From Escherichia coli (GTDB taxonomy: Bacteria > Pseudomonadota > Gammaproteobacteria > Enterobacterales > Enterobacteriaceae), in NCBI RefSeq assembly GCF_013315695.1, contig NZ_CP054353.1: a stretch of DNA of 64,000 nucleotides; one strand, 5' to 3'. The notes beneath the pieces were generated by a model. That model did no database searches. It worked only from the letters and a program-made list of their open reading frames with translations, and was not told the origin of the DNA. Made by a program: the position numbers and the translations under genes. Below are positions 7,416-31,382 of the stretch, piece by piece. Numbering within the stretch: position 1 is the stretch's first letter; each line of letters begins with the position of its first letter.

Positions 7416-8669
7416 ATGCTGGAACAAATGGGCATTGCCGCGAAGCAAGCCTCTTATAAATTAGCGCAACTCTCCAGCCGCGAAAAAAATCGTGTGCTGG
7501 AAAAAATCGCCGATGAACTGGAAGCACAAAGCGAAATCATCCTCAACGCTAACGCCCAGGATGTTGCTGACGCGCGTGCCAATGGCCTTAGCGAAGCGAT
7601 GCTTGACCGTCTGGCACTGACGCCCGCACGGCTGAAAGGCATTGCCGACGATGTGCGCCAGGTGTGCAATCTCGCCGATCCGGTGGGGCGGGTAATCGAT
7701 GGCGGCGTACTGGACAGTGGCCTGCGTCTGGAGCGTCGTCGCGTACCGCTGGGGGTTATTGGCGTGATTTATGAAGCGCGCCCGAACGTGACGGTTGATG
7801 TCGCTTCGCTGTGCCTGAAAACAGGTAACGCAGTGATCCTGCGCGGCGGCAAAGAAACCTGTCGCACTAACGCTGCAACGGTAGCGGTGATTCAGGACGC
7901 CCTGAAATCCTGCGATTTACCGGCAGGCGCAGTACAGGCGATTGATAATCCTGACCGCGCGCTGGTCAGTGAAATGCTGCGTATGGATAAATACATCGAC
8001 ATGCTGATCCCGCGCGGCGGGGCTGGTTTGCATAAACTGTGCCGCGAACAGTCGACAATCCCGGTGATCACTGGTGGTATAGGCGTATGCCATATTTACG
8101 TTGATGAAAGCGCAGAGATCGCTGAAGCATTAAAAGTGATCGTCAACGCGAAAACTCAGCGACCGAGCACATGTAATACGGTAGAAACCTTGCTGGTAAA
8201 TAAAAACATCGCCGATAGCTTCCTGTCCGCATTAAGCAAGCAAATGGCGGAAAGCGGCGTGACGTTACACGCAGATGCTGCTGCGCTGGCGCAGTTGCAG
8301 ACAGGCCCCGCGAAGGTGGTGGCGGTTAAAGCCGAAGAGTATGACGATGAGTTTCTGTCATTAGATTTGAACGTCAAAATCGTCAGCGATCTTGACGATG
8401 CCATCGCCCATATTCGTGAACACGGCACGCAACACTCCGATGCGATCCTGACCCGCGATATGCGCAACGCCCAGCGTTTTGTTAACGAAGTGGATTCGTC
8501 CGCTGTTTACGTTAACGCCTCTACGCGTTTTACCGACGGCGGCCAGTTTGGTCTGGGAGCGGAAGTGGCGGTAAGCACACAAAAACTCCACGCGCGTGGC
8601 CCGATGGGCCTGGAAGCACTGACCACTTACAAGTGGATCGGCATCGGTGATTACACCATTCGTGCGTAA
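7416..8669 (+). CDS. proA: Gamma-glutamyl phosphate reductase
   Basis: 417-aa ORF starting [25 protein letters not shown], immediately downstream of proB. Confidence 0.97.
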
Positions 8670-8783
8670 ATAAAACCGGGTGATGCAAAAGTAGCCATTT
8701 GATTCACAAGGCCATTGACGCATCGCCCGGTTAGTTTTAACCTTGTCCACCGTGATTCACGTTCGTGAACATGTCCTTTCAGG

Positions 8784-8859
8784 GCCGATATAGCTCAGTT
8801 GGTAGAGCAGCGCATTCGTAATGCGAAGGTCGTAGGTTCGACTCCTATTATCGGCACCA
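8784..8859 (+). tRNA. thrW: tRNA-Thr (anticodon CGU)
   Basis: 76 nt, gccgatatagctcagttggtagagcagcgcattCGTaatgcgaaggtcgtaggttcgactcctattatcggcacca. It folds as a cloverleaf with an encoded CCA end, downstream of proA as in E. coli. Confidence 0.95.
8841..8859 (+). other. attL core (thrW 3' end, actcctattatcggcacca)
   Basis: Near-identical copies occur in inverted orientation at 32590..32608 (18 of 19 nt) and, degenerate, at 39506..39523. Confidence 0.75.
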
Positions 8860-8971
8860 TTCAAACATCTCCCCAAGTCTACTAAAGTCTTTCAAAACCC
8901 CTTATAATCCGCGTATTAAAGCCCCGTTCGTCTTTTGACGTCTACTAAAGTCCCTCAAAATCTACGGTCAG

Positions 8972-8993
8972 ATGGGGGTACTTATGGGGGTAT
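8972..8993 (+). repeat. Putative integrase arm-type site (atgggggtacttatgggggtat)
   Basis: The inverse complement recurs with 21 of 22 identity at 39583..39604, about 60 nt from the degenerate att copy. A third half-site, gtaccccca, lies at 9015..9023. Two copies of gtctactaaagtc sit upstream at about 8877 and 8941. Confidence 0.55.
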
Positions 8994-9024
8994 TTGCTGT
9001 TCGGTTTAGTGGAGGTACCCCCAA

Positions 9025-10239
9025 GTGAAACTCAATGCCCGTCAAATAGACACAGCCAAGCCAAAAGAGAAGGCTTACAAGCTGGCCGATGGTGGCGGTT
9101 TGTATCTCTTGGTAAAACCTAATGGAGGTAAATACTGGCGACTTAAATATCGTGTAGCTGGTAAAGAGAAGCTATTGGCACTAGGTGTTTATCCTGAGGT
9201 TACTCTAGCCGATGCTCGGGCAAAACGTGAAGATGCGAAAAGAGGTATCGCTGGTGGTATCGAACCGATGGAAGCGAAACGAGAGGAAAAGATTGCCCGG
9301 GAAACGCAGTTAAACAACACCTTCAAAGATATTGCCCTTGAGTGGCACAGCAGCAAATTAAAAAAATGGTCTGCTGGTTATGCTTCAGACATCCTCGAAG
9401 CCTTCAACAAAGATGTGTTCCCTTACATTGGCAAAAAACCCATCGCCGAAATCAAACCACTTGAACTTCTGAATGTGCTGCGTCGCATCGAGGGGCGCGG
9501 TGCTACAGAAAAAGCCAAAAAAGTGAGGCAACGGTGCGGGGAAGTTTTCCGCTATGCAATAGTCACTGGTCGCGCAGAGTATAACCCTGCACCAGACCTT
9601 ACTAGCGCGATGCAAGGCCATGAATCTAATCATTACCCTTTCCTTACAGCCAAAGAATTACCTGATTTTTTCAAGGCATTGTCCAGTTACTCAGGAAGCG
9701 CATTGGTTGTTATGGCGGCTCGTCTACTGATTATCACCGGCTTGCGGACTGGCGAACTACGTGGCGCATTATGGGATGAAATTGATTTCAACAAGGCTAT
9801 CTGGGAGATACCCGCTTCACGTATGAAAATGCGGCGGCCTCATATTGTGCCATTGTCTGAGCAGGCTCTTTCGCTTATTGGGAAGATTAGAGAAATAACA
9901 GGCAATTACCCTCTTATGTTTCCCGGGCGCAATGATCCAAGGAAAACAATGAGCGAGGCCAGCATAAACCAAGTGTTTAAGCGCATTGGCTACGCTGGAC
10001 GTGTAACTGGTCATGGGTTCCGGCACACTATGAGTACGATTTTGCATGAGCAGGGCTATAACACTGCGTGGATAGAAACGCAGCTCGCTCACGTTGATAA
10101 GAACTCAATTCGTGGCACATACAACCATGCGCAATATCTGGATGGAAGGCGGGAGATGCTTCAATGGTATGCCGACTATATGGATTCTCTCGAGCATGGC
10201 GGAAATGTGGTGCATATGGTGTTTGAAAAACACGCATGA
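9025..10239 (+). CDS. Tyrosine recombinase, P4-family integrase
   Basis: 404-aa ORF with a GTG start. The N-terminus MKLNARQIDTAKPKEKAYKLADGGGLYLLVKPNGGKYWRLKYR is typical of P4-like integrases. The C-terminus has HGFRHT and a conserved Tyr region. It sits directly next to the tRNA. Confidence 0.9.
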   Translation: MKLNARQIDTAKPKEKAYKLADGGGLYLLVKPNGGKYWRLKYRVAGKEKLLALGVYPEVTLADARAKREDAKRGIAGGIEPMEAKREEKIARETQLNNTFKDIALEWHSSKLKKWSAGYASDILEAFNKDVFPYIGKKPIAEIKPLELLNVLRRIEGRGATEKAKKVRQRCGEVFRYAIVTGRAEYNPAPDLTSAMQGHESNHYPFLTAKELPDFFKALSSYSGSALVVMAARLLIITGLRTGELRGALWDEIDFNKAIWEIPASRMKMRRPHIVPLSEQALSLIGKIREITGNYPLMFPGRNDPRKTMSEASINQVFKRIGYAGRVTGHGFRHTMSTILHEQGYNTAWIETQLAHVDKNSIRGTYNHAQYLDGRREMLQWYADYMDSLEHGGNVVHMVFEKHA

Positions 10240-10491
10240 AACAACTGGACAAGTATACAGAGGTTTACTAAAGTATAAGGGAGTAGATTGATAAAAACTC
10301 ACAGAGGATTGCTATTTAACAGTTAGCCATGGAGAAGGGCAATCGCTCTTTTAACAACGAAGATGGAATCTTCTACGCAGCTGAAAAGCTGGATGCTCTT
10401 TAACAGCCTTTGGTGCTTTTCTGATGCAGGAAAGAATAGGGATACATGCACCTTTACAATGCATGTAATGATTCATCCATGAGGCTGCGGA

Positions 10492-10515
10492 GCGCTGACA
10501 AAGCGCAATTGCTCT
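10492..10515 (+). repeat. 24-nt exact direct repeat, copy 1 (gcgctgacaaagcgcaattgctct)
   Basis: Identical to 10605..10628. It lies in the int/alpA intergenic region. Confidence 0.8.
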
Positions 10516-10604
10516 TTAACATTGATGTGGGCGGGATGGTTCGTCCCGCAGTGACCGATAGATTTCTATCGGGAAACATACAATGATTCAAATATGAATC
10601 TACG

Positions 10605-10628
10605 GCGCTGACAAAGCGCAATTGCTCT
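10605..10628 (+). repeat. 24-nt exact direct repeat, copy 2
   Basis: Identical to 10492..10515, with 113 nt spacing. The two copies fall in different reading frames, so they are not coding repeats. Confidence 0.8.
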
Positions 10629-10890
10629 CTTGCCTGCCCACCATGCCCTGAAAAAGGGCGTTCTTTAAAACTACTGGATGTCACGCCTAATAGCGTGATC
10701 CTGCCGAAATGCAGGGTAGCTCTACCCTTGTGGAGCAAACAAACCAAAACAATCTGACTATCTTTTATAAAAGACCGCAATATGTTTTTCATATTGTGGT
10801 CTTTGGCGTATTCGACATTTGACGCAAATAAAACTCTCGCCATTCGTTGCAGGAGGGGGTTATTGCGTCATTAGTACAGGATATTAATAA

Positions 10891-11094
10891 ATGGCTAATT
10901 ACAATTCATTAATTCGTCTCTCTGAAGTTCAAAGGCGAACTGGTTATAGCAAAGCATGGATTTATCGTCTTATTAGTCAGGGGAGGTTCCCTAAACAGGT
11001 AAAAATTGGAAGTCGGGCAATTGCTTTTGTTGAGTCTGAAATAGATGAATGGATTGAGAAGTGTATATTAGAATCTAGAGACGAGGTGGCCTGA
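10891..11094 (+). CDS. AlpA-family (Xis/Vis-like HTH) regulator
   Basis: 67 aa, with ...IRLSEVQRRTGYSKAWIYRLISQGRFPKQVKIGSRAIAFVESEIDEWI, the AlpA/prophage CP4-57 regulatory pattern. Confidence 0.85.
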   Translation: MANYNSLIRLSEVQRRTGYSKAWIYRLISQGRFPKQVKIGSRAIAFVESEIDEWIEKCILESRDEVA

Positions 11095-11525
11095 TGGAAA
11101 AGAAAAACCGCCCATTACAGGCGGCTAATTCAGATATTCGTGTATCTGATGTTACGCCCCTTACAAAATCCCTTCAAGCACCAAAGCGCACACCGAAAAA
11201 GCATCGTGCCAGAGTCTATATGCTGCGTACTGGTATAGAGGGATGGACAGAAAATGACATTCTTCGCTACTGCCGTCTGTCTTCTGGTCGTAACTATGCA
11301 ACAGAGTTAGAACGCCAGCTTGGAATCACTCTGGAGCGTATCGACGAAAAGAATCCTGATGGTATCGGAACACACCTTCGCTACCGTTTCTCCTGCCGTG
11401 GTGATGTTCTGAAAGTGATCACTCATGTTAACCATCTTGCGAACATAAATGATCACAACGGACTTTCTCAGCAGGAAATTGCCGACATTCTGAAACTCTA
11501 CCCGGACGCGTTTAACGCCGCCTAA
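11094..11525 (+). CDS. Hypothetical protein (143 aa)
   Basis: Its start overlaps the alpA-like stop (TGATG). No family recognised. Confidence 0.55.
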   Translation: MEKKNRPLQAANSDIRVSDVTPLTKSLQAPKRTPKKHRARVYMLRTGIEGWTENDILRYCRLSSGRNYATELERQLGITLERIDEKNPDGIGTHLRYRFSCRGDVLKVITHVNHLANINDHNGLSQQEIADILKLYPDAFNAA

Positions 11526-11537
11526 CGGAGACTGAAA

Positions 11538-12371
11538 ATGAACATCGAAAAAAGCAGATTAATTTCTGAGGCCGCCCCTCATCTGAACGCCTCTCTGGGC
11601 ACAATTAACGGTAATGAATTTGCCGCAATTGTCCCGGTTATTCCTGGTCATATCGGTGGGCGTGAAACCAATATTGTTAGCGCAAAAGCGTTACACAAAG
11701 CGTTGGGCGTGGGAAAAGACTTCTCTACATGGATCACTGATCGCATCTCTGAATATGACTTCACCATTGGGCACGATTACTCAGTCCATAAAACAATTTC
11801 CCCAAATTTGGGGAAAAGCCCGAATGGCGCGGCTTACAGCAAGATAAAGCACTCTGGCAGACCCGGTAAAGACTATCTGTTAAGTGTCGGAATGGCGAAA
11901 GAACTGGCAATGATCGAACGCAATGATCAGGGTCGCGCTATCCGCCGTTATTTCATCCAGTGCGAGGAAGAATTACAGCGTAGCGTTCCTGAAATCGCCG
12001 CCCGCTATCGTCGCCAGCTAAAAGCCCGTCTCAGTGCCGCAAACAACTTTAAGCCAATGTGCGATGCGCTGAATATGGCCCGTGCCGAGATGGGTAAAAC
12101 GACGCAGCAACACCACTACACAAACGAGAGCAATATGATTTCTCGTATCGTTCTTGGTGGGCTAACTGCTAAGCAGTGGGCGCGGATAAATGGCTATTCT
12201 GGCGAACCTCGCGACCATATGAACGCAGAACAGCTTGAGCACCTCTCATATCTCGAAAGCACCAATATCACGTTAATTGATATGGGCATGGAATATGAGC
12301 AGCGCAAAGGAGAACTCACCCGCCTGTCGCAACGCTGGCTCGCCAAGCGTCTGGAGGCGGTCCATGTTTAA
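11538..12371 (+). CDS. AntA-type phage antirepressor-like protein
   Basis: 277 aa. The central region SAKALHKALGVGKDFSTWITDRISEYDFTIGHDY...DYLLSVGMAKELAMIERNDQGRAIRRYFIQCE matches the AntA/AntB antirepressor domain as I remember it. Confidence 0.65.
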   Translation: MNIEKSRLISEAAPHLNASLGTINGNEFAAIVPVIPGHIGGRETNIVSAKALHKALGVGKDFSTWITDRISEYDFTIGHDYSVHKTISPNLGKSPNGAAYSKIKHSGRPGKDYLLSVGMAKELAMIERNDQGRAIRRYFIQCEEELQRSVPEIAARYRRQLKARLSAANNFKPMCDALNMARAEMGKTTQQHHYTNESNMISRIVLGGLTAKQWARINGYSGEPRDHMNAEQLEHLSYLESTNITLIDMGMEYEQRKGELTRLSQRWLAKRLEAVHV

Positions 12372-12546
12372 GCCGACAGGAACACCACAACCTCAAAAAC
12401 GCTACAAAGATGCCCACGGAGCACTCGTTACTGTCGAAAGCGTGTCTCACAACCGAGTGACGTTTTATCGCGACGGGTATCAATCGCCATGCGTACAACC
12501 GCTGGCGCGCTTCATGAAGGAGTTCGCGGAGGTTAACAAATGCTAA
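12364..12546 (+). CDS. Small protein, DUF4222-like
   Basis: Internal ATG 12364 of ORF 12277..12546 overlaps the upstream stop. MFKPTGTPQPQKRYKDAHGALVTVESVSHNRVTFYRDGYQSPCVQPLARF resembles the DUF4222 prophage family. Confidence 0.5.
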   Translation: MFKPTGTPQPQKRYKDAHGALVTVESVSHNRVTFYRDGYQSPCVQPLARFMKEFAEVNKC

Positions 12547-13201
12547 CCGTCCAGAAGAAGATATTTTCACTGGCTGGTATGTCACCAAAATCCAGCAATA
12601 TGACAGCAAAGTCTGGCATTAATACAGCAGATACAAGCAAAGTTTATCATTTTCTGGTGGTAGGAGCGGATGCCTTAACTATGTCAGAAATTACGGTCGA
12701 TGGTGTTAGCGTTGAGAAGGTCAGCGGCTGCGCCAGAGAATTTCTGGTCGTAGATGGCTTTCTCTGCTCGCGTAGTGACTCCACAAAAACCTTCGTCCAT
12801 ACGCGCGACGTTAACGAAATGAGCGCGATGTATTGTGCATCTGGTGCTTCCAATACTGAGTTTTCGGAGTCCATAAAAAAGAGCTTGCCGTTATGCGGCA
12901 ACACGGTTTATGGTTATAAGGCACCTCATAAAACGGGTGCCGGGATTGGCGTCCTGAAAATTCTGAAGGCGACATATGACGCGCCGAGCGTCTTTTTTTA
13001 TGTCGTAGGTCTGACTCACCCATTTTTTGGGCGTTGGTGTATAATCCAGCGCCTTTGTCAATCAATGGTGGCTCAGGCGGGGGCTTCTTCGGAAGCGCCG
13101 GTATCCTTCAGAGCCGGTTACGCCAACCCTGTCTGGGCTACCACCAGCGAAATTGGCGTTTCCGGTGGTAGCGTAACCTGCTATCTGAAGGAGGCTGCCA
13201 C
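12540..13201 (+). CDS. 5' two-thirds of a 355-codon open frame, possibly an Ash-family-like protein. The true 3' end is unresolved.
   Basis: ATG 12540 overlaps the upstream stop (ATGCTAA). The frame stays open to 13607. From 13202 onward better-supported genes occupy the DNA, and 13068..13180 looks like structured RNA. Confidence 0.3.
13068..13180 (+). ncRNA. Candidate C4/CI-like antisense immunity RNA
   Basis: Three hairpins lie directly upstream of the icd-like gene. The first is a UUCG-loop stem at 13083..13096. The second is ccgg/ccgg at 13098..13117; its loop tccttcaga (13104..13112) is complementary to tctgaagga (13184..13192) across the icd-like Shine-Dalgarno. The third is a 9-bp stem, 13137..13145 with 13164..13172. 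The ends of the RNA are not defined. Confidence 0.35.
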
Positions 13202-13396
13202 ATGCTGGCTACTACCCCTACCCAAAAACCGCAATTTATCTGGATTATCGCCGCAGTTCGCCGCGATTGCCCGACAATTACCGCCAAAATTCATCATATT
13301 GCTGCCGAGTCTGAACGCGATGCTCGCCGTTCTCTGGTGCGCGATCACGTCTGCTTTTTTGCTGGTCGTATCCGCATGGAGGTGGCACATGATTAA
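13202..13396 (+). CDS. Icd-like (host cell division inhibitor-like) small protein
   Basis: 64 aa starting MLATTPTQKPQFIWIIAAVRRDCPT, recalled as the Icd-like family. A strong SD (gaaggagg) precedes ATG 13202. Confidence 0.6.
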   Translation: MLATTPTQKPQFIWIIAAVRRDCPTITAKIHHIAAESERDARRSLVRDHVCFFAGRIRMEVAHD

Positions 13397-13607
13397 AACC
13401 TACGATGTGCATATGGATCCCCTCGAACGCACAAGCCAGATCATCACACTGACAGAAGTGATTAACGACATTCTGGTGAGCAACTCTCCCTCACGAGACG
13501 AAAGGCTGAAGGCGTTACTCGCGATATTGGATCTCGCCGTTCGTGACGTTCATTTCCTGCTGGAAGGTGGCGAAATGCCAGGAAAAACGGGGGCAACCAA
13601 TGAATAA
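13389..13607 (+). CDS. Hypothetical small protein (72 aa)
   Basis: ATG 13389 overlaps the icd-like stop (ATGATTAA). It starts MIKTYDVHMDPLERTSQIITL. Confidence 0.5.
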   Translation: MIKTYDVHMDPLERTSQIITLTEVINDILVSNSPSRDERLKALLAILDLAVRDVHFLLEGGEMPGKTGATNE

Positions 13608-15219: not shown

Positions 15220-15583
15220 AAATGCAGAAATGGCGCTTAGCTCCGCAATCGGAGAGCAGGTGGCAAAGATTGCTGGTGCTGTGTGGATTCATAACCTTCA
15301 TTCTACTGGTGAAGAGAAAATGGCAATTCAGACGCCAGAGGGACGCACCATTACTACATCTCTGAAGCCGTCAGATGTTTGTGATCTGATTTGCGCATTC
15401 ATGTACCCAGCAATGAGGACTGTCCACGGCGATAAGTGGAAACTTGCGACAACCGCTGAATTTGATATGTGGCTAAACAATGATGGCATGCTGACTGATT
15501 ACGGAATAACCAAGTGGCAGATGCTGGTTAGCCATATCGCAAACGCTATAGACCACGTGGGGTACGGTGATGCGAAACATTGA
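15212..15583 (+). CDS. Hypothetical protein (123 aa)
   Basis: It overlaps the upstream stop. Its C-terminal motif is DGMLTDYGITKWQMLV. Confidence 0.55.
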   Translation: MRENAEMALSSAIGEQVAKIAGAVWIHNLHSTGEEKMAIQTPEGRTITTSLKPSDVCDLICAFMYPAMRTVHGDKWKLATTAEFDMWLNNDGMLTDYGITKWQMLVSHIANAIDHVGYGDAKH

Positions 15584-18326
15584 TCTTATCCGTCAGGTTA
15601 TCAGTGCGTCTGAAAACAACTGGCCTCATGTGCTGGGCTGCCTGAACATAAATGTCCCTGACTCTCCGCGCCGTCATGCTCCCTGCCCTGCATGTGGGGG
15701 CAAAGATCGATTCCGGTTCGATGACAACGGGCGCGGTAGCTTCATCTGTAATCAGTGCGGCGCTGGTGATGGGCTGGATTTAATTAAACGCGTAAATAAC
15801 TGCGACACAACAGAGGCGGCGCTTCTTGCCGCTGATGTTCTGGGTATTGATTACCGGACAACGGAAACACCAGAAGCCACCAGCCAGAAACGGGAACAAC
15901 TGGAAACCGAGCGCCAGCGACGCGAACAGGAGCGCCTGAAAAGGGCAGAGAAGGACGAACAACAAAGACGGGATACGTTTTCCCGTCAGTTTGATGACAT
16001 GCGCAGAAAGGCTGTAAACGGCAAATCTGATTATCTGGTTGCGAAAGGGGTAGGTGATTTTACATTCCCCGTGTTGCCCGATGGATCTCTGTTGCTGGCG
16101 CTGGTGGATAAATCCGGCGCAGTCACAGCAGCACAGACTATTACATCACATGGTGAAAAAAGACTCCTGACAGGTTCAGCAAAGCGGGGGGCATATCACG
16201 CCATAAACGCGCCAGAAACAACACAGAGCATCTTAATCGCAGAAGGGCTGGCAACGGCATTATCTGCCCATTTAATTCGTCCAGAGGCGCTGACAGTGGC
16301 GGCGATTGATGCCGGGAACCTGTTATATGTCGCCCAGGTACTGCGGGATAAATTTCCTTCAGCACAAATCATCATTGCTGCGGATAACGACCACAGCGAA
16401 GGAAGACAAAACACGGGGAGAATAGCAGCAGAAAAAGCAGCTTTATCTGTTTCTGGATGGGTGGCATTACCCCCGACAGATCACAAAGCAGACTGGAATG
16501 ATTACCACCAAAAACACGGCATTAAATGCGCCACAGAAGCGTTCAATAAGTCAATGTACCAACCACAGGGTAATGGCGTGAAACATGAGCCACAGACCAT
16601 TGAGGGAAGCGATTTTAAGGTTATGGATACCGACCCACTGAAACCAAGAATAGAAAGCCGCGAGGATGGTATTTATTGGGTATCTCCGAGAGCTGACAGC
16701 CAGAGTGGAGAAATCATCAATAACGAAAGCTGGTTATGTTCTCCGTTAAGCGTTATCGGTACTGGCAGAGACGATAAAGACCAGTATCTCATTCTTCGCT
16801 GGCTGTCGTTTGGTTCTGAAACGCCGACAACCGCTGCCATTCCACTGGCTGATATTGGTGAACGTGAAGGATGGCGCACACTTAAAGCTGGTGGGGTAAA
16901 TGTCACGACCAAAAGCAGCCTCAGAGCAATACTGGCAGACTGGCTACAACGCAGTGGCTCTCGTGAATTGTGGCGTGTTGCTCATGCCACTGGCTGGCAA
17001 TGCGGAGCGTACATCATGCCTGATGGGGAAATCATCGGAACACCTGAAAATCCTGTGCTGTTCAGCGGGAGAAGCTCAGCCGCAGCCGGATATACCGTCT
17101 CAGGGAGCGCGAAAAGCTGGCGTGATAACGTGGCGCGTCTGGCCTTTGGTAACTATTCAATGATGACCGGGATCGGCGCAGCACTGGCAGCGCCATTGAT
17201 TGGGCTGGTGGGCGCTGACGGGTTCGGCATTCATTTCTATGAGCAGTCGAGCGCAGGTAAGACCACCACGGCAAACGTGGCGAGCAGCTTATACGGCAAC
17301 CCTGATTTACTGCGGCTGACGTGGTACGGAACCGCGCTGGGGCTGGCAAATGAGGCCGCCGCCCACAATGACGGACTAATGCCGCTTGATGAAGTTGGTC
17401 AGGGCGCTGATCCTGTCAGCGTTTCACAGTCTGCCTATGCGTTATTTAACGGTGTAGGGAAACTGCAAGGCGCTAAAGATGGTGGAAACCGGGATCTAAA
17501 ACGCTGGCGTACAGTGGCAATCAGCACCGGAGAAATGGATTTAGAAACATTTATCGCTACTTCCGGGCGAAAAACCAAAGCCGGGCAACTGGTGCGACTG
17601 CTGAATATTCCGTTGAGTAAAGCAGTACGCTTTCACGATTACCAGAACGGAAAACAGCACGCAGACGCACTGAAAGACGCTTACCAGCATCACCACGGCG
17701 CGTCCGGGCGTGAGTGGATTAAATGGCTGGCAGACCACCAGCAACAGGCTATTAAAACCGTTCGTGACTGCGAAAGCAGATGGAGAAGCCTGATCCCATC
17801 CGATTATGGTGAGCAGGTTCACCGTGTAGCCGCGCGATTTGCCATTCTGGAGGCCGCATTGTTGTTAGGCGAGGTTGTAACAGGCTGGGATGCTCAGACA
17901 TGCCGTGATGCGATACAGCACAGCTATAACGCATGGTTGCGCGAGTTCGGCACAGGTAACAAAGAGCATCAGCAGATTATTGAACAAACGGAGGCATTTC
18001 TTAATGCCTATGGGCTTAGCCGTTTTGCACCATTTCCATACAGCCCGGCAGATTTGCCCATCAAAGATTTAGCCGGATACCGTCAGCGTGGAGAACATGA
18101 CGAAAGCCCAATGATTTTCTACACATTCCCGGCCACATTTGAAAAGGAGATCGCATGTGGTTTCAACGCAAAACAGTTTGCTGAAGTGTTGAAAAAAGCC
18201 GGGATGCTAACCCCACCAAACAGCGGTCGTGGATACCAAAGAAAATCACCACGTATTCAGGGACGACAAATAAACGTTTATGTACTCAATTACCAGCCAG
18301 GAGATTATAACTCATCTGAAGAATGA
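15567..18326 (+). CDS. Primase-helicase (P4 alpha-like: Zn-ribbon, Toprim, DUF927-type NTPase)
   Basis: 919 aa. It has CPACGGKDRFRF...FICNQCG (Zn ribbon), IIAADNDHSEGRQNTG (Toprim acidic motif) and a Walker A-like YEQSSAGKTT. The start could be GTG 15567 or ATG 15570. Confidence 0.9.
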   Translation: MMRNIDLIRQVISASENNWPHVLGCLNINVPDSPRRHAPCPACGGKDRFRFDDNGRGSFICNQCGAGDGLDLIKRVNNCDTTEAALLAADVLGIDYRTTETPEATSQKREQLETERQRREQERLKRAEKDEQQRRDTFSRQFDDMRRKAVNGKSDYLVAKGVGDFTFPVLPDGSLLLALVDKSGAVTAAQTITSHGEKRLLTGSAKRGAYHAINAPETTQSILIAEGLATALSAHLIRPEALTVAAIDAGNLLYVAQVLRDKFPSAQIIIAADNDHSEGRQNTGRIAAEKAALSVSGWVALPPTDHKADWNDYHQKHGIKCATEAFNKSMYQPQGNGVKHEPQTIEGSDFKVMDTDPLKPRIESREDGIYWVSPRADSQSGEIINNESWLCSPLSVIGTGRDDKDQYLILRWLSFGSETPTTAAIPLADIGEREGWRTLKAGGVNVTTKSSLRAILADWLQRSGSRELWRVAHATGWQCGAYIMPDGEIIGTPENPVLFSGRSSAAAGYTVSGSAKSWRDNVARLAFGNYSMMTGIGAALAAPLIGLVGADGFGIHFYEQSSAGKTTTANVASSLYGNPDLLRLTWYGTALGLANEAAAHNDGLMPLDEVGQGADPVSVSQSAYALFNGVGKLQGAKDGGNRDLKRWRTVAISTGEMDLETFIATSGRKTKAGQLVRLLNIPLSKAVRFHDYQNGKQHADALKDAYQHHHGASGREWIKWLADHQQQAIKTVRDCESRWRSLIPSDYGEQVHRVAARFAILEAALLLGEVVTGWDAQTCRDAIQHSYNAWLREFGTGNKEHQQIIEQTEAFLNAYGLSRFAPFPYSPADLPIKDLAGYRQRGEHDESPMIFYTFPATFEKEIACGFNAKQFAEVLKKAGMLTPPNSGRGYQRKSPRIQGRQINVYVLNYQPGDYNSSEE

Positions 18327-19079: not shown

Positions 19080-19541
19080 ATGGAACTAAAATTTATTGAT
19101 AACCCTGTGCGATTACAGGCCTTTCTTAACGAGCCAGGCAATACCGAAAATATTGTTGAGCCGGGGCACACGTACTACATCAAGCCTGATGCGGTATATC
19201 TCGGCATCTACGAAGGATTAGTGCTGGCTGGCGTTCATGAAGTGCGTAACTTCTGGCATAGCGTTGTTGAATGCCATGCGGTGTACGACCCCGGATTCCG
19301 TGGTGAATATGCACTGCAAGGACATCGATTATTCTGCAAATGGCTTCTCGAAAACTCACCATTCCTTAACAGCATTACCATGGTTCCTGACACCACGAAA
19401 TACGGACGGGCAATTATCCGTTTGCTTGGCGCTACCCGTGTTGGTCATCTTGATGATGCTTATATCAGATGTGGTAAACCCGTCGGCGTAACGCTTTATC
19501 AGTTAACTCGGCAACAATATAAGGAATTCAGCGAATGTTAA
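19080..19541 (+). CDS. P22 gp14-like protein (ejection-protein assembly factor family)
   Basis: 153 aa. The assignment rests on its position directly upstream of the gp7/gp20/gp16-like genes, its size, and a recollection that gp14 belongs to a DUF2824-type family. Confidence 0.45.
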   Translation: MELKFIDNPVRLQAFLNEPGNTENIVEPGHTYYIKPDAVYLGIYEGLVLAGVHEVRNFWHSVVECHAVYDPGFRGEYALQGHRLFCKWLLENSPFLNSITMVPDTTKYGRAIIRLLGATRVGHLDDAYIRCGKPVGVTLYQLTRQQYKEFSEC

Positions 19542-20212
19542 TTACCCATATAGCTTATAAACATCTCAATCGTGCCGTATACGAAAAAGGCGGTGATGGT
19601 GGTGCCTCTAAAGCTCAGGCGAAGGCCCAGCAGCAGGCAATTGATTTGCAGCGCGAGCAGTGGAATACGGTGATGAATAATCTCAAGCCGTATGCAGAAG
19701 TCGGATTGCCTGCTTTACAACAACTACAAGGACTGATGACTCTGGAAGGGCAGAATAAAGCCGCGAATGATTTCTTTGGTTCTGGTTTATATAAAACACA
19801 GGCAGATCAGGCCCGTTATCAGAACCTTGTCTCAGCAGAAGCTACCGGGGGGCTTGGCTCAACAGCTACCAGTAACCAGTTATCTTCCATTGCGCCCATG
19901 CTTTATAACAATTGGCTCAGTGGGCAAATGCAAAATTATGGAAACCTGCTAAATGTCGGGATGAATGCGGCATCAGGGCAGGCAACAGCAGGGCAAAACT
20001 ACGCCAATAATACCGGACAACTCTTGCAGGGGCTTGGCGCTATTCGTGCAGGTCAGGCGCAGCAGCCATCCAGTCTTGCGCGTGGTATTGGTGGGGCGGC
20101 ATCAGGCGCTTTAGCGGGTGCGCAACTTGGTTCCGTTGTTCCGGGTATAGGTAATGTCGCCGGGGCTATTGGTGGTGGGCTTATTGGTCTTGTTGGGGGG
20201 CTTGGATTCTAA
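19535..20212 (+). CDS. P22 gp7-like ejection (DNA transfer) protein
   Basis: 225 aa. It has YEKGGDGGASKAQAKAQQQAIDLQREQW...KPYAEVGLPALQQLQ and a Gly-rich C-terminus, as in podovirus gp7-type DNA transfer proteins. Its start overlaps the upstream stop. Confidence 0.65.
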   Translation: MLITHIAYKHLNRAVYEKGGDGGASKAQAKAQQQAIDLQREQWNTVMNNLKPYAEVGLPALQQLQGLMTLEGQNKAANDFFGSGLYKTQADQARYQNLVSAEATGGLGSTATSNQLSSIAPMLYNNWLSGQMQNYGNLLNVGMNAASGQATAGQNYANNTGQLLQGLGAIRAGQAQQPSSLARGIGGAASGALAGAQLGSVVPGIGNVAGAIGGGLIGLVGGLGF

Positions 20213-21630
20213 TGGCGACATGGCAACTTGGCGGGCTGCCTAGCATGGCACCGCAAAATGATAATGCTCCTCGTTCTTCCGTTCCTCAGCCTGTGCAGTA
20301 TCAGCAGCAGCCAAACGTAGGTTTAATGGCGCTACAGGGGCTAAGAGGCGTTGCTGAGATTAATCAGCAGGCACGTCAACAACAGCGTAAAGCAGAGTTT
20401 CAGAAAGCATATGCCGGGGCTTTTGAGTCTGGAGACAGAAACAAAATGCGCAGTCTTATTTCTGAGTATCCAGAAGAATTTGAAAGCGTTCAGAAAGGGA
20501 TGGGCTTTATTGATGACGACCAGAGAAATTCTATTGGTCATCTTGCGACTAGTGCTCAAATCGCATCTTCGCTCGGAACTGGGGCATTTGGAAAATTCAT
20601 AGCAGATAACGAAGATGAAATGCGTCGTTTGGGAATTTCTCCTGAGTCTGTTGCCGAAATGCATGTTAATGATCCACAGGGATTCCAGCGGCTTGCTGGT
20701 AGTATGGCACTGTTTTCTCTCGGTCATGAGAAGTACTTCGATATCAAAGATCGAATGGAAGGTCGGGATATTGAGCGTGGCAAGTTGGCAGAGACGATCC
20801 GCAGCAATCAAGCCGGAGAAGCACTTCAGGCGAGAGGGCAGGATATTAGCCGAGCAAATGCGTTAACGTCAGCATATGCACCAACAGCCGCAATGCAGAA
20901 TTACAATCAATACGCGCAAATGTTAAAGGCGGATCCAGAGGGGGCTGCGGCATTTGCGGCAGCGGCTGGAATTAATACAAACGCCAAAAAATTAATGAGT
21001 GTTAGAGAAAACGATGATGGCACTGTCACAAAATACTACACAGACGGAAGTGAAGAGCAGGGAAAACTAAACCAGCCAATATCTGGAGATGGGTTTCGTC
21101 CAATAGCTTTGCCAACAGCCCAAAAGATCATGGAAAAGTCGCCAGAAGGGGCTAAAAAAGCTGCTGGATTTGCATACAGAGTTAGGGATGCTCTTGATTC
21201 AATAGATACACTGAAAGACCAGCTTAGCCCACAGCGAGTGGCGATCATTAATAATGCTTTGGGTAATGGGACGCTGGCTAACTTAACGCTCAGCCCAACA
21301 GAGCAGCAATACGTTGTTAATGCTAATGACGCAATAATGGCAATACTCCGTCAGGAAACAGGGGCATCTATCCTACCAGCTGAAATGTCCAAATATTATC
21401 AAATGTATTTCCCTCAGCCTGGTGATTCCACAAAAACCATTGATACCAAGCGTAGGAAGATGGAAAACCAGTTCAATTCGCTGAAAGCTGCTTCTGGTCG
21501 AGCTTATGATGCTTTGCGGGTTATTTCAGCAGTTGACAGAGGAACTTCTTCTTCGTCGCAGACATTGCCGCAATCTGAGCAGGTATCACAGCCAGCAGTA
21601 ATTTTTCTTCACTATGGGGTGATTAGGTAA
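20212..21630 (+). CDS. P22 gp20-like ejection protein; last codons replaced by IS1 sequence
   Basis: 472 aa (P22 gp20 is about 471 aa from memory). TAATG overlap with the gp7-like gene. IS1 starts at 21626. The reconstructed ancestral end is ...HYGVING-stop. Confidence 0.6.
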   Translation: MATWQLGGLPSMAPQNDNAPRSSVPQPVQYQQQPNVGLMALQGLRGVAEINQQARQQQRKAEFQKAYAGAFESGDRNKMRSLISEYPEEFESVQKGMGFIDDDQRNSIGHLATSAQIASSLGTGAFGKFIADNEDEMRRLGISPESVAEMHVNDPQGFQRLAGSMALFSLGHEKYFDIKDRMEGRDIERGKLAETIRSNQAGEALQARGQDISRANALTSAYAPTAAMQNYNQYAQMLKADPEGAAAFAAAAGINTNAKKLMSVRENDDGTVTKYYTDGSEEQGKLNQPISGDGFRPIALPTAQKIMEKSPEGAKKAAGFAYRVRDALDSIDTLKDQLSPQRVAIINNALGNGTLANLTLSPTEQQYVVNANDAIMAILRQETGASILPAEMSKYYQMYFPQPGDSTKTIDTKRRKMENQFNSLKAASGRAYDALRVISAVDRGTSSSSQTLPQSEQVSQPAVIFLHYGVIR

Positions 21631-31155: not shown

Positions 31156-31189
31156 TGCCCCGCCAGCTATAATCGCGGGGCCTCGTTTT
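31156..31189 (+). terminator. Possible terminator after ykgJ
   Basis: gccccgc (31156..31162) pairs with gcggggc (31174..31180). The sequence ctcgttttt follows. Confidence 0.45.
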
Positions 31190-31340
31190 TCAGGGATAAC
31201 AAACCCCGAAACTTCTTCCATCTGCCAGCAACAATGCCTCTTCCTCTATAGTGTTCTCCGGATCTACAGCATCCTGAAGTAGCGCGATGTACTCACTGGC
31301 TATCTGCATCAGAAAGTTAAAAACAATGTTTTTAACCTAT

Positions 31341-31369
31341 AAAAATGGCGCTGTATTTGCGCCATTTTT
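31341..31369. terminator. Bidirectional hairpin downstream of yagU
   Basis: aaaaatggcg (31341..31350) pairs with cgccattttt (31360..31369). A/T runs flank it on both sides. Confidence 0.6.
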
Positions 31370-31382
31370 ATCATTCAATGCA

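Follow-up and report, generated by a model that had tools for sequence, protein, structure and literature searches.

Introduction

The nut (N utilization) sites of lambdoid phages, such as nutL and nutR of lambda, P22, H-19B/933W and phage 21/Kapi1, are cis-acting RNA signals recognised by phage N proteins together with host Nus factors, and both the sites and N antitermination are textbook knowledge. A phage has one nut site per operon, in which boxA, a spacer (sometimes with a hairpin) and boxB lie on the transcribed strand, with a promoter upstream and terminators downstream. Here we describe the same elements in a phage satellite. The window under study is a stretch of 64,000 nucleotides (nt) of Escherichia coli (RefSeq assembly GCF_013315695.1, contig NZ_CP054353.1), and all positions count from its first letter. 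Within it, the 651-base-pair (bp) gap between an integrase gene (int) and alpA, in an island of the phage-inducible chromosomal island (PICI) type, holds a tandem array of boxA and boxB elements. We think it probable, with a good deal of room for doubt, that this gap serves as a leader that senses N proteins of several specificities and antiterminates transcription into alpA.

Satellites are known to tie their cycle to the lytic programme of a helper phage through an early or late regulator of the helper, as in the Staphylococcus aureus pathogenicity islands (SaPIs), where Stl meets phage antirepressors, or in P4 with Cox and Ogr of P2. PICIs embedded in their helper are read through from its late operon (PMC10111431). 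AlpA is the master activator of PICI-type satellites (PMC6092414, PMC11773190). In EcCICFT073 alpA is induced by lambda and phi80, and the phage-encoded inducer of Gram-negative PICIs "is now under study" (PMC6092414); helper sensing by these islands has been an open question since 2018. For EcCIMP1 of E. coli MP1, induction and transfer by the phage Kapi1 were shown in a 2025 paper that names no mechanism or factor and mentions neither nut sites nor antitermination (PMC11773190). On the host side, the boxA consensus UGCUCUUUA is bound by NusB/NusE (PMC6614797), and nut sites fused to reporters are able to make expression N-responsive in trans (PMC3526286).

The locus shares with the lambdoid sites the boxA and boxB elements, partly nucleotide by nucleotide, as well as the boxA, spacer, boxB layout, which in the satellite stands between a predicted promoter and a predicted terminator. 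It differs from them in lying in a PICI-type island, outside the early operon of any lambdoid phage with a cognate N of its own, in having up to five tandem modules within about 400 nt, and in mixing several N specificities, with the N protein coming from another genome. With the rrn leader (boxB-boxA-boxC) and the arrays of clustered regularly interspaced short palindromic repeats (CRISPR) protected by boxA, it has in common the exact UGCUCUUUA boxA, a hairpin immediately 5' of boxA in modules 2 and 3, and a long untranslated RNA that would need protection from Rho; however, the satellite hairpins are phage N-binding sequences, and the array precedes a regulatory operon that codes for proteins. 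The coupling to a helper regulator recalls SaPIs and P4, but the proposed signal is an RNA-binding processive antiterminator caught by RNA sites in cis, instead of protein-protein derepression, a DNA-binding activator or the physical embedding of the satellite in its helper. The closest relative is EcCIMP1 itself (PMC11773190), which has the same transfer RNA (tRNA)-Thr site between proA and yagU, AlpA protein and gene set, with the leader in a 427-bp form, whereas the window has the long 651-bp form with extra modules of 933W-nutL type and lambda type. Among the papers available without subscription, no prior description of nut sites, boxB or antitermination in the alpA leaders of PICIs or other satellites was found, and no account appears to exist of a phage satellite that uses a tandem nut array of several specificities.

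Nut Elements in the int-alpA Spacer

Judged by their sequence, the repeats of the spacer are boxA and boxB elements of lambdoid nut sites, all of them on the + strand, which is sense for alpA. This identity follows from exact matches to the boxB elements of lambda nutR and P22, from 48 nt shared with a 933W-type nutL, and from stems that covary around fixed loops. The comparisons given in this and the following section establish what the elements are and how they are arranged, together with their bias to one strand, their covariation and modular variation, and their homology to phages. The boxA copies have the form CGCUCUU(U)A or UGCUCUUUA of nut sites, and the boxB hairpins are of types bound by known N proteins: P22, lambda, a GAAA loop like that of Salmonella phage SI8, and a CUAANN hexaloop like that of Kapi1. 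BoxA stands 5' of boxB at a short distance in module 1 (20 nt), module 4 (10 nt) and module 5 (9 nt).

A sequence-only reading of this region had already regarded it as a non-coding block whose repeats work at the level of RNA or of binding sites, and this view holds. The open reading frame (ORF) of 129 amino acids on the minus strand (10454-10843), which that reading considered spurious, has no Pfam match and is open only in the long variant; in the other spacer variants the open stretches reach just 76-79 amino acids, and we rejected it as an annotation artefact. The 24-nt exact direct repeat GCGCTGACAAAGCGCAATTGCTCT is indeed present at 10492-10515 and 10605-10628, each copy enclosing the hairpin GCGC-TGACAAA-GCGC followed by AATTGCTCT. 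The GCTCT(T)TTAACA motifs, reported at two places, were recovered at 10345-10357 and 10395-10405 and have further copies at 10311-10321 and 10511-10521.

The first element of the array is boxA-like, ATTGCTATTTAACA at 10308..10321, with 1 mismatch in the 11-nt core. Module 1 (10344..10391) has the architecture of a P22-like/H-19B-like nutR and consists of boxA CGCTCTTTTAACAA (10344-10357), a spacer hairpin GAAGAT-GGA-ATCTTC (10359-10373) followed by UACG, and the boxB CAGCU-GAAA-AGCUG (10378-10391) with its GAAA loop. From boxA (CGCTCTTTTA at 10344) to boxB there are 20 nt including the hairpin, compared with 17 nt in the prophage nutR. This module aligns with nutR of 933W-type prophages and with that of SI8, whose boxB is TCGCTGAAAAGCGA. 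Its homologue in a Yokenella island (locus L023) matches 184 phage records, of which mEp234 and HK106 annotate boxA and boxB of nutR at that place. Directly after module 1, the boxA TGCTCTTTAACA (10394..10405) matches the rrn consensus UGCUCUUUA exactly; this is one of two such copies, TGCTCTTTA at 10394 and 10510, and weaker boxA elements begin at 10311, 10622 and 10660.

Module 2 (10492..10521) is formed by boxB GCGCUGACAAAGCGC (10492-10506, in the first copy of the 24-mer), AAU and boxA UGCUCUUUAACA (10510-10521). The boxB of the 24-mer is identical to that of P22 in 15 of 15 positions (PMC11480772). It is followed by two small hairpins (10531..10572), inside a 113-bp segment unique to the long variant. 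The GC stem GCGGGA/TCCCGC, as described earlier, does exist, although it spans 10531-10549, a few bases to the left of where it had been placed; CCGATA/TATCGG was found as described, at 10555-10572.

Module 3 (10575..10622) is a copy of a 933W/H-19B-type nutL, with the spacer hairpin GATTC-AAATAT-GAATC (10585-10600) and boxB GCGCUGACAAAGCGC (10605-10619, in the second copy of the 24-mer). Over 45-48 nt it is 94-98% identical to hundreds of lambdoid prophages and Shiga toxin (Stx) phages, and records of 933W-type phages annotate the counterpart as nutL (GQ499361). The prophage counterpart has the cI operon on one side and the N gene on the other, with a lambda-like PL/OL some 45 nt upstream, and the adjacent N gene encodes the arginine-rich motif RSRRRER of H-19B. 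For modules 2 and 3 the closest upstream boxA is 83-86 nt away, yet module 3 equals the phage nutL over 48 nt. Extended phage homology was rejected for modules 1 and 2: BLAST searches of 10300-10440 and 10436-10576 against phages gave nothing meaningful, and these modules share with phages just the short elements and the architecture.

Module 4 (10622..10659) joins a degenerate boxA, TTGCTCTCTTGCC (10622-10634), through 10 nt to boxB GCCCUGAAAAAGGGC (10645-10659), identical in 15 of 15 positions to boxB in the annotated nutR of lambda; among the 291 E. coli genomes with the leader, 42 have this module. Module 5 (10660..10699) is of the phage-21/Kapi1 type, with the boxA-like GUUCUUUAAAA (10660-10670), 9 nt and a 7-bp stem closed by a CUAAUA hexaloop (10680-10699). 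Its grammar is that of both nutR and nutL of Kapi1, namely GCTCTTTAACA, 9-10 nt, a 7-bp stem and a CUAACC loop. In the diverged leader L005 the stem of module 5 is retained through a change of G-C to G-U, and L018 has another stem with a CUAAGU loop. Downstream follow two conserved and covarying hairpins, CCUGC-CGAAAU-GCAGG (10700-10715), in which L005 has C-G for U-A in the stem, and GCUCUAC-CCUU-GUGGAGC (10719-10736). Together (10700..10736) they fold with a z score of -3.65 and may be further boxB types.

Strand Bias, Covariation and Modular Variation

By chance, the 64-kb window should have 0.02 instances of the boxB-type pattern GCSCTGAMAAAGSGC; it has 3, always on the + strand and within 170 bp. 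For the boxA pattern GCTCTTTAACA, allowing up to 1 mismatch, there are 5 copies where 1.17 would be expected, and 3 of them fall in the spacer; none of the boxA and boxB elements of the block lies on the - strand. We scanned 160 loci encoding AlpA relatives for arrays, defined as at least 2 boxB and at least 2 boxA within 300 bp. Ten loci had an array in the sense orientation and 0 in antisense, and the phage loci had none. Such arrays are therefore no general feature of alpA leaders, and most islands of Xenorhabdus, Serratia, Pantoea and similar genera are without them. In 990 kb the joint pattern of the phage-21 type appeared 8 times in sense, each time in one of these leaders, and 0 times in antisense; in Kapi1 it marks nutR and nutL and nothing else.

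Across the arrays, 12 different combinations of boxB stem and loop were found. The stems vary (GCGC, CAGC, CUGC, UCGC, GUGC, ACCC, GCCC, GGC), with pairing and GNRA-type loops retained, and in the spacer hairpin of module 1 compensatory double changes affect 4 of 5 pairs. The covariation check in homologous int-alpA spacers, which the sequence-only reading had suggested, thus gave covarying stems around fixed loops, as expected for an RNA hairpin and not for a DNA operator.

The spacer variants of E. coli differ by whole modules, with borders at boxB or boxA. In the short form there are module 1, a single P22-type boxB and the module of phage-21 type. To these a tRNA-Gly island adds the lambda-type module, and the window a further 113 bp ending in the 933W-nutL copy, an addition that generates the 24-nt repeat. 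Types of boxB also swap at one position: the boxB of module 1 has either a GAAA or a GACAA form in otherwise near-identical leaders. Islands of Enterobacter and Yokenella have arrays of other sequence, including a lambda-nutL-like ACCCUGAAGAAGGGU, directly after int and a TGGACA-N17-TAnnnT box. Further genes stand between array and alpA in these islands; at 1919-2812 of L023 the product is DUF6387 (Pfam E = 3e-38), and the L023 array is at the head of a longer operon.

The EcCIMP1 Reporter and Its Helper Kapi1

The island of the window belongs, by gene content and position, to the EcCIMP1 family of PICIs: it lies at tRNA-Thr next to proA and has int, alpA, an antirepressor gene, a primase and P22-like morphogenesis and ejection genes. 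Its AlpA (WP_000035054.1) is identical to that of EcCIMP1 in MP1, where the leader has 427 bp and the insertion site between proA and yagU is the same. The published alpA reporter of EcCIMP1 (-449 to +50) is induced when Kapi1 is induced and not by mitomycin C alone, and it is so also in a delta-alpA strain (PMC11773190). With a leader of 427 bp, the reporter fragment covers the complete leader, so this behaviour means that a trans-acting factor encoded by Kapi1 acts on it; that a helper factor acts on the fragment is thus already published.

The genome of Kapi1 offers a candidate for this factor. In Kapi1_020 (L174, MT813197, 7145-7450 (-), annotated as "hypothetical protein"), residues 8-29 are 100% identical to the N peptide of PDB entry 1NYB, labelled "Probable regulatory protein N". 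The 1NYB structure is the phage-21 complex of N peptide and boxB. On this match, Kapi1_020 is identified as the N antiterminator of Kapi1, of phage-21 type; the Kapi1 record has no annotation of nutL or nutR.

The island itself is not a source of N. PHROGs found no antiterminator in it, and ORF143, which we considered as a self-encoded N, was rejected, the comparison with N of H-19B giving E = 0.99. As the island is without an N-like gene, N must come from another genome. Nor do we claim a likeness of this AlpA to a structurally characterised antiterminator AlpA, as the only matches of a PDB sequence search were 8C3T ("AlpA family phage regulatory protein", E = 1e-5) and, weakly, TorI.

Proposed Mechanism

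The following sequence of events would account for these observations; in it we infer the promoter, the points at which transcription ends, the binding of N and the reading on into alpA. The int-alpA spacer would be the untranslated leader, of about 610 nt, of the alpA operon, transcribed from a weak promoter just after int. The candidate start is a promoter-like box found by consensus scan, TGGACA-N17-TAAAGT (10246..10274, +; here P_nut), 7 nt past the int stop codon and matching 9 of 12 consensus positions. A TGGACA-N17-TAnnnT box stands ahead of all ten nut arrays, in two sequence families, and in L023 it is the sole promoter-like match on the + strand upstream of the array.

When no helper is active, RNA polymerase would halt before alpA, through the action of Rho on the untranslated RNA and/or at a hairpin (10770..10804, +). 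A candidate Rho-utilisation region is the C-rich, G-poor and largely unstructured tract at 10720..10769 (+; C 25-30%, G 8-12%), where L005 has an additional CCAACC. The hairpin is terminator-like, with a 15-bp stem, a 5-nt loop and a 3' arm ending in UUU (folding free energy -20.8 kcal/mol, z = -6.4). It is the long hairpin already seen in the sequence-only reading, which gave it 14 bp; its arms are 10770-10784 and 10790-10804. In L005 the stem is retained by compensatory changes and followed by UUUUUGU. After the arrays of L023 and L018 no canonical intrinsic terminator was found on the + strand, so that termination there would need Rho.

Once a lambdoid helper is induced or infects the cell, its N would bind the matching boxB in the nascent satellite RNA and, together with the Nus factors held at boxA, turn the polymerase into a termination-resistant form. 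This polymerase would continue into alpA, and probably farther along the operon and past the C4-RNA immunity region as well; AlpA would then boost its own expression and start the satellite cycle. With boxB classes of lambda, P22/933W, P22-like nutR and phage 21 in a single leader, the island could respond to many helpers. We go a step further, at about even odds in our own estimation, in proposing that the tandem nut array is a modular and evolvable "universal N sensor" of an enterobacterial satellite family, by which any helper with a matching N switches the satellite on.

Several points weigh against the N sensor. EcCICFT073 and CP4-57 of K-12 are without any nut element; hence the mechanism is not general for Gram-negative PICIs, the induction of EcCICFT073 by lambda and phi80 must differ, and the nut array is a lineage-specific solution. 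Most carrier genomes have no second copy of the 933W-type nutL and thus no matching resident prophage. In MP1, the outer base pair of the P22-type boxB is a mismatch. The loop of module 5, CUAAUA, differs from CUAACC of Kapi1 and phage 21 in its last two positions, and binding of a phage-21-type N to it is putative. The predicted terminator of the window has just three U after the stem, and promoter, Rho site and terminator all have the status of predictions. Finally, the Kapi1 factor that acts on the reporter could be something other than N.

Alternative Explanations

The alternative that fares best, which we nevertheless consider unlikely, is antitermination by the host alone, as in rrn operons: boxA would recruit NusB/NusE, SuhB and NusG for a constant shielding from Rho, the hairpins would be dispensable and no phage N would be needed. 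The two exact rrn-type boxA copies and the rrn order of modules 2 and 3, with boxB immediately 5' of boxA, also suit such an N-independent process, and after boxA a GU-rich stretch, TTGATGTGGGCGGG at 10522-10535, could be a boxC. Moreover, boxA-mediated antitermination of non-coding RNA is widespread (PMC7665894). However, the boxB of rrn leaders lacks a consensus and is dispensable (PMC6614797), whereas the hairpins of the leader are exact copies of N-binding boxB elements from three or four phage classes, conserved in their loops and covarying in their stems, and module 3 holds 48 nt of a phage nutL. Several module types and the swapping of boxB at one position would be needless if boxA were enough, and the EcCIMP1 reporter depends on the helper instead of being constitutive.

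Somewhat less credible still is that the transcribed array works as a decoy, titrating N and Nus factors of an incoming phage and so damping or delaying early expression of the helper, with control of alpA being secondary. An excess of nut or boxA RNA is able to compete for host factors, interference with the helper is common among satellites, and many sites of several specificities on one RNA would serve such a purpose. Yet the main action of N is in cis, on the very polymerase that made the nut RNA, and the predicted promoter is a weak one. The array also heads the alpA operon in every case, in sense and ahead of a terminator-like hairpin, and is thus laid out like a readthrough switch.

We give little credit to the view that the modules are non-functional scars of recombination, in which exchanges between satellites and lambdoid phages left fragments of phage early regions. 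It would fit the 48 nt near-identical to phage nutL, the insertions and deletions bounded by repeats that separate the variants, and imperfect copies such as the degenerate boxA at 10622 or the mismatched MP1 stem. Against it, nut elements are all that was kept, never flanking phage genes or operators, and they have a single orientation (10 sense, 0 antisense) and covarying stems. The same grammar, in different sequences, recurs in Enterobacter and Yokenella islands, and the leader is retained in 291 of 5,426 E. coli genomes.

Least probable of all, and in our opinion hardly tenable, is the sequence-only reading's own proposal of DNA sites for AlpA/Xis-type proteins (or integrase) or of a free-standing structured small RNA: AlpA does autoregulate in EcCICFT073 (PMC6092414), short repeats ACAGAGG..T.CTA lie at 10257 and 10301 near the promoter box and the region folds better than shuffled controls, but the repeat units, including the 24-mers, are exact boxB and boxA with the covarying stems of an RNA, an Rfam search of 8500-12000 at E <= 1 matched a tRNA and nothing within 10240-10890, the int-adjacent arm of the attachment (att) site is on the other side of int, beside the tRNA, and the EcCIMP1 reporter is induced by the helper even without AlpA. 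AlpA may bind elsewhere in the spacer, for instance at the promoter box or at the conserved box 10818-10836.

Neighbouring Features and Carrier Genomes

Around the promoter-like box, the direct repeat ACAGAGG(T/A)TT(A/G)CTA (10257-10270 and 10301-10314) overlaps both this box and the boxA-like element with which the array opens. A regulator of the leader promoter may use it as an operator, and AlpA is a candidate for binding there. Directly after int, GAACAAC/GGAACAAC repeats form runs in islands with or without nut arrays: at 13185-13245 of L089 (EcCICFT073), at about 905-1040 of L023 and at about 620-665 of L018. The window has one copy of this type left (AACAAC at about 10240). These repeats may be binding sites of a regulator or of the integrase.

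Between the predicted terminator and alpA, the box TTGACGCAAATAAAACTCT (10818..10836, +) recurs with 100% identity in the diverged L005. It is a candidate alpA-proximal promoter or site of AlpA autoregulation. As a general alpA promoter it was rejected, for its occurrence some 80 nt before alpA is confined to loci that have this alpA allele. In L023, L018, L011, L100 and many other alpA relatives, a small conserved inverted repeat, CGTAAACCGCAATAGACGTTACGAGG, lies about 35 nt upstream of alpA and abuts the ribosome-binding site; it partly resembles the 5' arm of the terminator-like hairpin of the window (AGACCGCAATA).

In the window the gene order is proB, proA, tRNA-Thr(CGT) (8784-8859), the tyrosine integrase (9025-10239, +), the 651-bp gap and alpA (10891..11094, +; Pfam Phage_AlpA, E = 7e-20), the gene that the leader would control. 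Downstream of alpA are an antirepressor gene, DUF4222, an "ash family" ORF, a large primase gene (15567-18326) and the P22-type genes. The latter, for head morphogenesis (phrog_651) and DNA ejection (phrog_598, phrog_917), lie at 19080-21630 (+) and have homologues in the P22-like helper Kapi1; this agrees with a short-tailed lambdoid helper and suggests that the satellite provides its own ejection proteins. Rfam places isrK (12921-12998, +, 67.8 bits) and the C4 antisense RNA (13061-13148, +, 79.9 bits) inside an ORF of 355 amino acids (12540-13607), the "ash family protein" of RefSeq, which is probably a mis-call over an immunity RNA region of P1/P4 type. The GNRA hairpin of this element covaries across many loci of AlpA relatives (GCGGAGAAATCCGC, CAGCCGAAAGGCTG, CTTCCGAAAGGAAG and others). 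Away from the feature studied here, Rfam IS009 matches at 31177-31377 (-) with 193 bits.

The complete spacer in its long 651-bp form is present in 28 complete E. coli genomes, the 427-bp short form being far commoner; the 291 carriers out of 5,426 genomes refer to the 3' part of the leader. In L091 (NZ_OZ547117.1, 20719-21416) the spacer is 100% identical to that of the window, IS1 lies directly after the leader, and everything from alpA through the primase gene is gone. This is a decayed island in which the nut leader remains.

Conclusions

The N-sensor idea is directly testable with existing reporters and N expression plasmids. If it is true, the helper range of an island would be predictable from the boxB classes in its sequence, and the ability of one island to use many helpers would be explained, which is of interest as a Kapi1-like prophage is present in only 2 of 21 strains carrying EcCIMP1 (PMC11773190). 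The antiterminated polymerase might also override the C4-RNA immunity (isrK/C4, P1/P4-style) encoded downstream in the island. For synthetic biology, the leaders would be compact natural antitermination switches with multiple inputs. Above all, the inducer of this PICI family would be the N antiterminator of the helper, captured by RNA sites copied from phages, and this would be a new manner in which a parasite of viruses eavesdrops on its host virus.

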